From the NCBI GenBank assembly GCA_031549735.1, contig JAVBPF010000002.1, positions 19,790-83,789 of the forward strand: a DNA stretch of 64,000 bases, in the 5' to 3' direction. Position 1 is the stretch's first letter. Each line of letters starts with the position of its first letter. The DNA comes from Oscillospiraceae bacterium. Lineage in GTDB: Bacteria > Bacillota > Clostridia > Oscillospirales > UBA929. A model generated the notes under the pieces. That model did not search any database, had not been told where the DNA came from, and saw only the letters and a program-made list of their open reading frames with translations. Of this stretch, positions 962-3,356 are shown piece after piece. Position numbers and translations under genes: made by a program.

Positions 962-990
962 TTGACGAATAGAGAGGTCTTAAATATAAT
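962..990 (+). promoter_or_regulatory. Sigma-A-type promoter ahead of the peptidase-like gene
   Basis: TTGACG (962-967), 17-nt spacer, TATAAT (985-990) inside an AT-rich non-coding gap. Confidence 0.5.
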
Positions 991-1115
991 GATGCCAGAA
1001 TCAGGTTTTTCCTGTTGCTCACTATGGAGGAGGGAAGGGGGGAGCATGAGCCGCGCATGAGTGCGCTATCATGATAAATCAGATTGGGATAAAAGAGTTT
1101 GGAGGAAAAAATCTT

Positions 1116-2384
1116 ATGAAAAAGTCAGTTGTTAAGACGATCGTTGTAATTCTGCTGATGACCTTGGTGCTGAACAGCAGCATGTCCGCATTCGCGTTTT
1201 CAATAAGCACGAAATGGGAAGATAAATTAAATACTTTTGAGCCGGCTTTCCCGATCATCACAGAGGACGACTTGTTTATTTCTGATGAGGTCGCGTTTTA
1301 CATAGCCGAAATGTTCGTCCGGGATATGATCGCCACGCAGACGACCTGCTGGAACGAAGCCACAAAAATTGTGAGTACCACCATCATGTATGACGAGACC
1401 GGAGAGAACATAACCGCGTATACGTTTGAGTTAAGCCGTGGATATGTCGTCGTCGCGGCGCGCATAGACTTACCCGAGATCATCATGGAGTGGTCGGATG
1501 TAGCAGCCCCGATATACACAGAGTTTGACTTGGGTCCAAACGACACGGTCGTTTATCTCGGGATGCTGGATTACCTGGTCGAAAACGATGAGGACACCTT
1601 GGAGACACTTGACGGAACTATCGTGTCCAAGGAAGAAGTCTATAATTACTTCGATGAGATTTGCAGCATTGACAACGTCCGGGAGGATTTACTGACGGAC
1701 ATTGTTGAGTCCAAGCAAGCGGCTTCCACACGGGCGGGCGAGGTCTCGCTCCTTTCGAATACCTATGGCAGCGATATCACCGACCCTTTTGCCTATGCGT
1801 CCAATGTGTACGGATTCAGCTACATATGCTCGGATTACGCCAACAATTGGGAGAGTCACGCGAATTTTGCGGTAATGTCCAGTTTTAGTGGTTATGCAAA
1901 ACATTGCGGGCCAACAGCCATTACCAATATCATCAAAATGCATATGTCAAAATACAACCGAGGCAATAGAAGCAATATCAATACATTCACCGAAGTGATT
2001 GCGGCGAATACCGCGGCGGGCGGAAAGTATTACAGCTCTTCTGGTGGAACGCAGAACAGCACAGCGAATTCCTTTATTCGTGATTCTTTTGCGCGGTTTG
2101 GTGTGACAGTACAAGTATACGGGCGATATGTACCAACTTATGTAAATGTGAAAAACGCGACGACAGCAAACCGCTTGATGTACTTGATGCTGCTCAATCA
2201 TGAGTTATATGGGGATCACCATATTGTCGGTTATGCGTATACTCGTTTGCAGAACACATCTCTCCCAACGGTTTACAAATTATTTGTCAAAATTGCAGAT
2301 GGTTGGTCTACCAGCGCAAGATACGTCGATATGACATCCGCATCATCGTTCTCACATACCTACTGGGAAGTCTATTTTTCCTAA
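1116..2384 (+). CDS. Secreted papain-fold (clan CA) cysteine peptidase candidate, streptopain (C10)/staphopain-like, with long N-terminal pro-region
   Basis: ATG 1116 (MKKSVV) downstream of GGAGG. Signal peptide ends ..SSMSAFA. Motif HCGPTAITNIIKMH (Cys codon 1905-1907) is followed by GDHHIVGYAY (His codons 2217-2222) and ADGW. These are co-linear by eye with streptopain GCVATATAQIMKYH / GGHAFVIDG / NWGW. About 230 aa precede the Cys motif. Confidence 0.55.
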   Translation: MKKSVVKTIVVILLMTLVLNSSMSAFAFSISTKWEDKLNTFEPAFPIITEDDLFISDEVAFYIAEMFVRDMIATQTTCWNEATKIVSTTIMYDETGENITAYTFELSRGYVVVAARIDLPEIIMEWSDVAAPIYTEFDLGPNDTVVYLGMLDYLVENDEDTLETLDGTIVSKEEVYNYFDEICSIDNVREDLLTDIVESKQAASTRAGEVSLLSNTYGSDITDPFAYASNVYGFSYICSDYANNWESHANFAVMSSFSGYAKHCGPTAITNIIKMHMSKYNRGNRSNINTFTEVIAANTAAGGKYYSSSGGTQNSTANSFIRDSFARFGVTVQVYGRYVPTYVNVKNATTANRLMYLMLLNHELYGDHHIVGYAYTRLQNTSLPTVYKLFVKIADGWSTSARYVDMTSASSFSHTYWEVYFS

Positions 2385-2416
2385 CATTCTAACATTTTAG
2401 GATATTGAGGTTGTGA

Positions 2417-2451
2417 TTTATCCGGCCAGACAATGGTTTTGACCGGATAAA
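2417..2451 (+). terminator. Hairpin between peptidase-like gene and first paralogue (possible partial terminator)
   Basis: TTTATCCGG (2417-2425) / CCGGATAAA (2443-2451), 17-nt loop, followed by CCTTTTG. Confidence 0.3.
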
Positions 2452-2474
2452 CCTTTTGACGGGAGGCGGCTCAC

Positions 2475-2891
2475 ATGTTCGGACATAAACGCCGAAGAAC
2501 CCTGCTGTTGATTGTAATCATTGCACTATTGCTTCTGACATCGATAATCCTTGTGGTAATCACACAGAATGGATTGAAAACAATGGACTACCAAATCAAC
2601 TGGTCGGATGTTACCGAGGTGTTTATCCAGAATGGCAGCACAGGGGAGCAGATTATTTATACAACGCCCTCCGACATCAAAGAAATCACCGACTATTTTG
2701 CGGCTTTTCAATATAGAAGAACCGAAAAAATGCTGCCTGACCGTGGTGGTTGGAGCTATCGTGTCGCCATAATGATCGGCAGGCAGCAGTACAGCTATGA
2801 ATTCGGGAGCAATTGGGTAGAAATTGATCATGTCCGCTACTATTCGGACGAGGCGTATTTCCAACGCTATATTGATTTGTTTGAGGAGTGA
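2475..2891 (+). CDS. Membrane-anchored small protein, paralogue 1 (unknown function)
   Basis: 138 aa; basic N-terminus plus one hydrophobic helix (LLLIVIIALLLLTSIILVVI), then ~100-aa domain; GGAGG before the ATG; paralogous to 2934-3356. Confidence 0.75.
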   Translation: MFGHKRRRTLLLIVIIALLLLTSIILVVITQNGLKTMDYQINWSDVTEVFIQNGSTGEQIIYTTPSDIKEITDYFAAFQYRRTEKMLPDRGGWSYRVAIMIGRQQYSYEFGSNWVEIDHVRYYSDEAYFQRYIDLFEE

Positions 2892-2933
2892 TTTCGGAAA
2901 GCCTGATCCGGAACATGACAGGAGGCGACACAA

Positions 2934-3356
2934 ATGCCCAAACCAAACCGTCTCAAATCTCCGCTGCTGATCGGAGCCGCCGCGCTGCTAGTCCTGTCGG
3001 CAGTCGTCGTCCTCGTGTTGTTCATAAGTGAAAGAGAGAGGGAAGTGGACTATCAGATCAACGGGCCGGACATCACCGAAGTGTTTATCCAGAACGGCAC
3101 CACAGGGGAGCAGGTTTTTTGTACAATGCCTTCCGAAATCAAAGAAATCACCGACTATTTTGCTGCTTTTCGATATCGAAAGTCGGAGAAATTGCCACCC
3201 GGAATCTTTGACGGGTGGAGTTATCGCATTGCCATGATGATAGATAATCAGCAGCATAGCTACTTGTTTGGAAGCGACTGGGTGGAAATTGACAAGGTGC
3301 GCTACTATTCGGATGATGCGTATTTCCAACGCTATATCGATTTGTTTGAGGAATAA
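2934..3356 (+). CDS. Membrane-anchored small protein, paralogue 2 (unknown function)
   Basis: 140 aa; single N-terminal helix (LLIGAAALLVLSAVVVLVLFI); shares DYQIN..D(V/I)TEVFIQNG(S/T)TGEQ, IKEITDYFAAF, GWSYR, VRYYSD(E/D)AYFQRYIDLFEE with 2475-2891. Confidence 0.75.
   Translation: MPKPNRLKSPLLIGAAALLVLSAVVVLVLFISEREREVDYQINGPDITEVFIQNGTTGEQVFCTMPSEIKEITDYFAAFRYRKSEKLPPGIFDGWSYRIAMMIDNQQHSYLFGSDWVEIDKVRYYSDDAYFQRYIDLFEE

Follow-up and report, generated by a model that had tools for sequence, protein, structure and literature searches.

Why is the gene for a putative secreted cysteine peptidase followed, in an AT-rich patch of an Oscillospiraceae genome, by two genes for small membrane-anchored proteins? 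We addressed this question in a 64,000-nucleotide stretch of contig JAVBPF010000002.1 (hereafter, the window), in which the region 780-3500 has a GC content of 0.457 versus 0.564 for the whole 64-kb window and is among the 2 lowest-GC of 613 same-size sliding windows. A preliminary description, made from the sequence by eye, had reported an AT-richer patch here, located between the terminator of a gene for an S1-domain protein and the promoter of a padR gene and holding three co-directional genes; both observations hold. We interpret the patch as a self-contained operon of two components, horizontally mobile and of a type characteristic of gut Oscillospiraceae-type Clostridia. Our best guess, to which we assign a probability of about 0.42, is that the anchored partner proteins inhibit the peptidase and thereby protect the cell that produces it. 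Gut Oscillospiraceae are abundant and poorly characterized, and only a handful of the proteases that they secrete are understood. Two unannotated families are defined here, one of two-domain clan CA peptidases and one of surface-anchored partner domains, with confident structural models and a reproducible linkage between them.

The three open-reading frames (ORFs) lie in one direction, and each has a GGAGG-type ribosome-binding site:

1116 to 2384, plus strand: gene 1, a 422-residue exported, pre-pro-type papain-fold cysteine peptidase of an unnamed clan CA family, as predicted from the ORF, its homolog family, an AlphaFold2 (AF2) model and Foldseek
2475 to 2891, plus strand: gene 2, a 138-residue predicted type-II membrane-anchored partner, paralog A; ribosome-binding site GGGAGG, family hidden Markov model (HMM) E 1e-45
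2934 to 3356, plus strand: gene 3, a 140-residue predicted type-II membrane-anchored partner, paralog B; ribosome-binding site AGGAGG, AF2 model available

The ORF of gene 1 can be read from an ATG at 1071, which has no ribosome-binding site, or from an ATG at 1116 with GGAGG 10 nt upstream. We prefer the start at 1116 because of its better ribosome-binding site and because an NCBI-derived protein collection holds a 422-residue sequence identical to the gene 1 product. GC content at third codon positions is 0.54-0.59 in the three module genes versus 0.77 in the S1 gene.

The gene 1 product belongs to a family of 61 homologous clusters from gut and rumen Clostridia, none informatively named; 56 of the 61 were aligned. 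Its parts are these:

1116 to 1196, plus strand: Sec signal peptide, residues 1-27, read by eye, with predicted cleavage between AFA and FS
1263 to 1730, plus strand: N-terminal domain (N-domain), residues 50-205, a prodomain-like helix and beta-sheet module; predicted local distance difference test (pLDDT) score >90, co-aligned with the proregion of prostaphopain B
1731 to 1775, plus strand: variable, low-confidence linker, residues 206-220; pLDDT falls to 58, and below 50 at residues 208-210, in an indel-rich part of the alignment
1776 to 2381, plus strand: catalytic papain-fold domain, residues 221-422, identified from Foldseek matches and from Peptidase_C39_2 matches in relatives
1905 to 1907, plus strand: codon TGC of Cys264, motif HCGPTAITN, the predicted nucleophile at a helix start; invariant in 56 sequences
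2217 to 2219, plus strand: codon of His368, motif YGDHHIVGYAY, the predicted general base on beta-strand 366-380; invariant
2298 to 2300, plus strand: codon of Asp395, motif ADGW, the predicted third residue of the triad; D395-G396 invariant

Export through Sec is the likely route for this protein, judging from its basic MKKSVVK start and hydrophobic core at residues 9-27, and Ala27 at the predicted cleavage site is kept in ~90% of the family. A region of ~190 residues separates the signal peptide from the catalytic domain. Within it, the linker is a candidate junction between pro and mature parts, at which cleavage may occur. The N-domain is the best-conserved part of the protein, with a mean pairwise identity of 0.425 versus 0.381 for the catalytic domain. 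Residues N243, C264, N271, H368, K392, D395, G396 and R402 are invariant across the 56 aligned members. The signal peptide, long N-terminal region and active-site-like motifs that the preliminary description had pointed out are thus real, and the key residues C264, H368 and D395 do not vary among the homologs. By motif order rather than geometry, Asp395 would correspond to Asn175 in the Asn-Ser-Trp motif of papain.

An AF2 model built on the 56-member alignment (mean pLDDT 89.6) comprises, in order, a signal-peptide helix, a disordered spacer, the N-domain, the linker and the C-terminal catalytic domain. C264 opens helix 264-279, H368 sits on its strand and D395 follows strand 387-394; model and alignment together display the clan CA order of a Cys at a helix N-terminus, then His, then Asn/Asp on the beta lobe. 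When the model was searched against the PDB with Foldseek, prostaphopain B (1x9y_A) was the top match (E 5e-5, probability 1.00, 423 columns covering both domains) and the only one below 1e-3. The match to 1x9y_A had a template-modeling (TM) score of 0.26-0.30 and a root-mean-square deviation of 24 Å, from which we conclude that the domains match those of prostaphopain B but differ in their relative orientation. At the level of domains, then, the model has the C47-type two-domain zymogen fold. The next matches were papain-like CdiA-CT toxins, staphopains A and B, falcipain-2, cathepsin L, IdeC/IdeS and a papain-like toxin/immunity pair, with staphopain, cathepsin L and falcipain at probabilities of 0.97-1.0. 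As modeled, the gene 1 product is a papain-fold (clan CA) cysteine peptidase with a predicted catalytic role.

Sequence searches place the protein outside the named families. Scans of the three window proteins against Pfam, NCBIfam and PHROGs returned nothing above noise, and PDB chains searched with the peptidase, by phmmer and by profile, yielded no meaningful match and no staphopain chain. Peptidase_C10 (PF01640) matched neither the window protein, nor its isolated catalytic domain (E up to 10), nor any of the 56 members, and the same was true of Peptidase_C47 (PF05543) for all three. Peptidase_C39_2 (PF13529) matched 15 of the 56 members over the Cys-to-His core (best E 2.5e-6), with scores of 25.8 bits for P0041, 23.5 for P0061 and 18.1 for P0033 at a gathering cut-off of 24; the window peptidase itself had no match to this model in the Pfam scan. 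Inhibitor_I69 (PF13734) matched weakly, at the beginning of the N-domain, in two of the 56 members (E 0.01-0.06), residues 54-120 of P0040 scoring 14 bits against a cut-off of 25. The preliminary description had called the protein streptopain/staphopain-like and had proposed searches with these four profiles. The structural matches uphold a staphopain-like fold, and the profile searches lend no support to membership in C10 or C47; the C39_2 signal is marginal. The peptidase represents an unnamed clan CA family at the edge of Peptidase_C39_2. C47, C70, C39, C39_2 and BtrH are grouped in one subcluster of papain-like enzymes (PMC10318531), and to judge from its sequences the present family is a new, two-domain branch of this subcluster.

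Genes 2 and 3 encode paralogs with 62% overall identity, each consisting of a short basic N-terminus, a very hydrophobic helix at residues 11-29 and an ectodomain of ~100 residues. KRRR precedes the transmembrane helix of the gene 2 product, and the order of basic and then hydrophobic residues predicts an N-in/C-out topology for both proteins. The two are old duplicates (dS ~1.1) whose ectodomains are under purifying selection and whose anchor region has drifted (dN/dS ~0.12 versus 0.55); the low ectodomain ratio indicates that both copies are maintained. A word-index search recovered only 3 members of this family, namely both window copies and one relative; an exhaustive profile search recovered 252 representative clusters at E <=1e-3 and 63 at <=1e-10. 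Members with 2-4 tandem repeats exist, and the family consensus contains the motifs NG.TG and LN.FRY..W.P..P...GGWSY.

The AF2 model of the gene 3 product (pLDDT 91.4) has a transmembrane helix at residues 9-31 followed by a beta2-alpha-beta5-alpha arrangement. Among the Foldseek matches listed for it, the only good ones were 2mct (probability 1.00, E 0.012) and 4r7r (probability 0.99, E 0.048), with TM scores of 0.39-0.50; no staphostatin, cystatin or chagasin was among the 50 listed, and no viral model was significantly similar in a further Foldseek search. PDB chains searched with the partner, by sequence and by profile, yielded no meaningful match. No Pfam match beyond noise was obtained for the family, DUF5301 and DUF4179 appearing weakly in 5 of 66 homologs, and we found nothing relevant in the literature on DUF5301, 2mct or 4r7r. 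These results bear out the preliminary description in its account of two paralogs with one membrane helix each and an ectodomain unlike any named family, and they do not support a relationship to staphostatins, with which it had compared the small proteins. Neither the peptidase nor the partner family has a curated model or a name beyond 'hypothetical protein'. Two other ideas about the partner were set aside. Homology to the peptidase prodomain, in the manner of Spi and the SpeB propeptide, was not accepted on an hhalign probability of 31% over only 23 columns, aligned with the beta-hairpin of the N-domain. An anti-sigma or signaling role was rejected, given a cytoplasmic tail of only ~10 residues.

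Is the association of these genes peculiar to the window? We scanned one genome per species for the peptidase and obtained 74 loci, whose six-frame ORFs were searched with our own HMMs of both families; 24 distinct loci, a count that includes the window, L002 and L078, hold a full-length two-domain peptidase. Partner-family ORFs lie directly downstream on the same strand, with a predicted anchor, in 18 of these 24. Recurrence of the same pair at this rate indicates that the pairing is not due to chance, and the small proteins are thus tied to the peptidase, as the preliminary description had supposed. Copy number ranges from one to six per locus (six in L004, four in L006 and in L011, three in L026, two in the window). 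The first partner gene, which has a ribosome-binding site of its own, usually begins within 2-32 nt of the peptidase stop codon or overlaps it; from this spacing, the genes are probably co-transcribed. The 90-nt gap of the window is among the longest of the loci compared. Elsewhere, in ~800 kb of fetched flanks and in the remaining 61 kb of the window, there was no match to the partner family, and none of ~50 distant relatives that have only the catalytic domain has a partner-family neighbor. We consider the genetic link between peptidase and partner to be solid.

The mode of anchoring varies among these loci. In the window, the domain would be retained by its N-terminal membrane helix, which is predicted to stay uncleaved. 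In L005, L016/17, L018, L023 and L024, the partner domain has a cleavable signal peptide and no membrane helix and is fused to S-layer homology (SLH) repeats. SLH is the only recurrent fusion partner, present in 6 of 10 longer partner-family members, among which there is no enzymatic fusion. The constant feature of the partner domain is, as far as its predicted anchors tell, retention at the cell surface.

Where the slot behind the peptidase lacks this domain, its contents differ. L012 and L015 have a different small anchored protein there, encoded at 7116-7484 (123 residues) and 7238-7639 (134 residues), respectively; the two have in common a C-terminal '...GTIDGN.VRV.S' motif and show no Pfam match and no likeness to the usual partner family. 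The slot is filled by an SLH protein in L021 and empty in L019 and L020, and in L022 (Evtepia gabavorous) an IS3-type transposase pair at 7212-8161 directly follows the peptidase in the usual partner position.

Flanking genes are unrelated from one peptidase locus to the next, and the GC content of the module is 5-20 points under that of its flanks in almost every genome (L002-L024), whatever the GC content of the host. This could result either from repeated re-import from a low-GC origin or from a compositional constraint of the family. A tblastn search of phage and plasmid collections with the peptidase gave no match, and carriage by phages or plasmids is therefore not evident. Together, the conserved pair, unrelated flanks, low GC and lack of phage or plasmid homologs identify the unit as a compact, compositionally foreign, chromosomal two-component cassette.

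How might such a cassette work? In the model that we favor, expression from the promoter would yield a Sec-exported two-domain peptidase together with one or more anchored partners. The peptidase would cross the membrane as a zymogen and mature outside the cell at the variable linker; at the interface of membrane and wall, the anchored ectodomains would bind its catalytic domain and block it. Surface proteins of the producer would in this way be spared from an enzyme activated too early or too close, and tandem and orphan copies of the partner could extend protection to variant or foreign peptidases. Several properties of the partner are inhibitor-like and speak in favor of this model, namely its variable arrays, multi-repeat proteins and orphans, its persistence beside a decayed enzyme, and its faster divergence (mean distance 0.78 versus 0.61 for the peptidase). 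The arrays of one to six tandem copies, the orphans and the partner kept beside a decayed enzyme are also the genetic signature of toxin/immunity systems. A mirror-tree comparison over 17 loci is suggestive of the catalytic domain as the binding target: distances between partner ectodomains correlate with those of the catalytic domain at r 0.60 (partial r 0.42 with the N-domain controlled) and with those of the N-domain at r 0.49 (partial r 0.11).

A number of observations weigh against inhibition. Six of the 24 peptidase loci have no partner domain. The mirror-tree signal is weak, comes from 17 loci and is confounded by shared ancestry and paralogy. Among the listed structural matches of the ectodomain, of which 2mct and 4r7r are the best, there is no known peptidase inhibitor, conservation of the N-domain above that of the catalytic domain is unusual for a disposable propeptide, and an architecture of SLH domains and repeats resembles anchoring scaffolds equally well. 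In addition, when 7 partner-family loci were sampled independently of the peptidase, 5 had no peptidase (L001, L079, L081, L082 and L083). The partners of L001 and L079 reside stably inside a CODH/ACS-RACo cluster, between the genes for acetyl-CoA synthase (CdhC/ACS) and RACo corrinoid activation. The remaining two loci of this reverse sample have an intact peptidase upstream of the partner (L078) and only decayed peptidase fragments upstream of an intact partner gene (L080). These orphan loci mean that the partner family is broader than its association with the peptidase. The preliminary description had proposed adjacency in other genomes as a check, which comes out in favor when approached from the peptidase and against when approached from the partner; of the two outcomes that, taken together, it held to speak against a functional pair, wide occurrence without a peptidase neighbor is the one that we see. 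Orphan partners are nevertheless compatible with orphan immunity or inhibitor genes.

Two details of the reverse sample may be recorded here. The L001 and L079 partner relatives, at 133-555 and 2781-3203, have 34-40% identity and lie on two syntenic metagenomic contigs without a peptidase. In L080, these features lie at 476-722 and 777-1244, and the short fragments, just upstream of the intact partner gene, match the peptidase HMM at profile positions 225-259 and 373-401.

Part of this evidence can also be read in terms of attachment. The small domain may be a surface tether or maturation partner that docks the secreted peptidase, possibly via its N-domain, and displays or activates it without inhibition. 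The peptidase itself lacks an anchoring domain, the partner always has a transmembrane helix or SLH repeats, and the multi-repeat and SLH architectures of P0065, P0106, P0158 and P0180 are like those of anchoring scaffolds; furthermore, the partner co-occurs only with peptidases that have the N-domain, which is their most conserved part and the part to which the weak hhalign hint points. Yet partner distances follow the catalytic domain and not the N-domain, up to six divergent tandem copies for one enzyme gene (L004) are needless for anchoring, and orphans, like the intact partner beside a decayed peptidase, ill suit a dedicated tether. On balance, we regard tethering as less likely than inhibition, yet as a serious competitor to it. 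Inhibition could, on the other hand, serve attack. Low GC relative to flanks in nearly every genome and unrelated genomic contexts are as expected of accessory competition genes, and papain-like CdiA-CT and the toxin/immunity pairs 8ssm and 9l5u are among the structural neighbors of the peptidase, which could accordingly be a diffusible toxin directed at envelope proteins of competitors, with anchored proteins as immunity factors and orphans as protection from neighbors. The immunity-like arrays, the orphans and the decayed toxin gene with its partner kept would fit. Such a weapon would be one form of the inhibitor model, in which the enzyme has another target, and we find it unlikely: the loci contain no delivery or receptor-binding domain, lysis or export gene, or bacteriocin-type neighbor, the phage and plasmid searches gave no sign of carriage, a zymogen-type architecture is what one typically sees in nutritional or host-directed proteases, and the two window paralogs show plain purifying selection at their ectodomains.

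Two further explanations assign the partner a more passive role. It could be a dedicated substrate or pro-protein, cut by the peptidase to free the ectodomain or a peptide, since tight operon coupling and variable copy number are also seen in pairs of precursor and processing enzyme, and the peptidase family has distant ties to C39-type leader peptidases. The ectodomain is, however, compact and confidently folded, unlike a leader-plus-core peptide; there is no conserved double-glycine-type motif, the window copies lack a juxtamembrane segment conserved elsewhere in the family, the SLH-anchored versions have ordinary signal peptides, and many partner-family members have no nearby peptidase. This explanation is improbable. 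It is about as improbable that there is no specific relationship, the partner being a generic hitch-hiking surface protein or the peptidase homolog being catalytically inert. Widespread occurrence of the partner family without the peptidase would agree with this, and neither protein is experimentally annotated, but adjacency in 18 loci from several genera, with unrelated flanks and 2-32 nt spacing, the confinement of partner matches to these sites within the flanks and window searched, and the invariant catalytic residues all argue otherwise. Finally, inhibition by the anchored partner admits a bolder version, in which the partners, for which Pfam has no family, make up a structurally new class of cysteine-peptidase inhibitors anchored at the surface of Gram-positive gut anaerobes, and the modules are mobile 'protease warfare' cassettes; the enzyme would attack surface or S-layer proteins of neighbors, and partner arrays and orphans would confer strain-specific immunity on producers and bystanders alike. 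We think it rather unlikely that the system goes this far.

Systems in which the gene of a secreted cysteine peptidase is coupled to that of a small partner are of a known kind; new here are the two-domain branch of the peptidase, the fold of the partner and, in Gram-positive gut anaerobes, the use of a membrane helix or SLH repeats as its anchor. The staphopain/staphostatin pairs of S. aureus (scpAB, sspBC; MEROPS C47/I57) similarly combine, in one operon, a secreted pre-pro papain-fold peptidase with small (~110-140 residues) partner genes, the order Cys...His...Asn/Asp is the same, and prostaphopain B is the best structural match of the two-domain protein. In contrast to staphopains, the window peptidase and its family have no Pfam C47 sequence match. 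Staphostatins are cytoplasmic eight-stranded beta-barrels that have no anchors or export signal, whereas window-type partners are predicted to be extracytoplasmic, with an N-terminal membrane or SLH anchor and an alpha/beta ectodomain, and occur in one to six copies and also alone.

The closest match to the proposed topology and logic of the module is the KLIKK/potempin system of Tannerella forsythia. Potempins are surface-anchored proteins of 98-132 residues, encoded adjacent to and co-transcribed with secreted KLIKK peptidases; inhibition has been demonstrated, and the potempin-peptidase complexes protect the producer's own surface (PMC9890683). They are Gram-negative outer-membrane lipoproteins, encoded upstream of the peptidases, with an oligonucleotide/oligosaccharide-binding (OB) fold or eight-stranded barrels and with metallo- or serine-peptidase targets (PMC9890683). 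The window partners differ in being encoded downstream in a Gram-positive, and their inhibitory activity is conjectural.

Bfi and Bti are small exported or lipid-anchored inhibitor-like proteins that are transcriptionally coupled to C10 peptidases of Bacteroides, and a protective logic has been proposed for them (PMC3462683). These pairs, and SpeB/Spi of S. pyogenes, resemble the module in uniting a secreted cysteine peptidase that has a propeptide with a small coupled partner, and Bacteroides, too, is a gut commensal. The motif order GC...GGH...W of C10/SpeB is co-linear with that of the window protein, and a weak Inhibitor_I69 signal is present in the N-domain of two of the 56 family members. 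However, the family has no Peptidase_C10 match, and its invariant Asp395 contrasts with C10 peptidases, which function without a third catalytic residue (PMC10318531). Unlike Bfi/Bti and Spi, the window partners are not predicted to be beta-barrels. Peptidase_C39_2 is the only curated model with a sequence signal, P0041 lying just above the gathering score, but its described members are single-domain proteins, and the window family adds a conserved 155-residue N-terminal domain and an anchored partner. The partner-like folds of 2mct (Ruminococcus gnavus ZP_02042476.1) and 4r7r (a Clostridium perfringens putative lipoprotein) also belong to small surface-type proteins of gut Firmicutes; these are structural-genomics entries of unknown function, and neither has a sequence-level match to the partner. 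By analogy, the closest functional parallels of the module would be potempin/KLIKK and Bti/Btp; its closest structural one is prostaphopain.

Should the partner prove to be an inhibitor, it would constitute a new inhibitor fold and a Gram-positive, membrane- or wall-anchored counterpart of the potempin and Bti systems. It would also offer a handle on how commensals rein in extracellular cysteine proteases or turn them against proteins from host, food or competitors. As a tether, it would represent a novel mode of enzyme display at the cell surface.

Several signals delimit the module. The tail of the S1-domain gene occupies 4-720 and is followed by a strong terminator hairpin at 737-764. Between this point and the PadR gene lie the following elements:

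962 to 990, plus strand: sigma-70-type promoter TTGACG-17-TATAAT, 11 of 12 matches, a consensus match only
2419 to 2447, plus strand: intergenic hairpin in the gap between genes 1 and 2, without a T-run; the segment 2405-2460 folds at -16.5 kcal/mol
3459 to 3484, no strand assigned: G+C-rich hairpin at the module end, upstream of the padR promoter, -21.2 kcal/mol

The promoter at 962-990 is the one that the preliminary description had assigned to the patch and is present as described, although promoter-like sites in the region are as many as expected from shuffled sequence. The hairpin at 2419-2447 is imperfect (ATCCGGCCAGA...TTTTGACCGGAT) and may modulate read-through; it lies in the 90-nt gap, which is unusually long compared with 2-32 nt in most loci. 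For the hairpin at 3459-3484, a role as module terminator is tentative because its T-run is on the minus strand.

A perfect TTGACA-17-TATAAT promoter for padR at 3496-3524 marks the end of the low-GC patch. Around its -10 box is a 14-bp perfect inverted repeat (ATATAGATCATCTA at 3503-3516, TAGATGATCTATAT at 3531-3544), which resembles an operator through which PadR would regulate its own gene. Behind the PadR gene (3562-3918; Pfam PadR E 5e-23), and overlapping it, comes an ORF for a 485-residue membrane protein with a weak HAAS domain and an FtsW/RodA/SpoVE-like region. This pair of genes, in the interval 3562-5284, has no relation to the peptidase module. GC content is also low, though less markedly, in a second patch at ~59200-63700 (<0.50 in 2.7-kb windows), which has genes for a small secreted protein, a putative lipoprotein, two multi-pass membrane proteins and an ABC ATPase, and may be another accessory export or immunity cassette.

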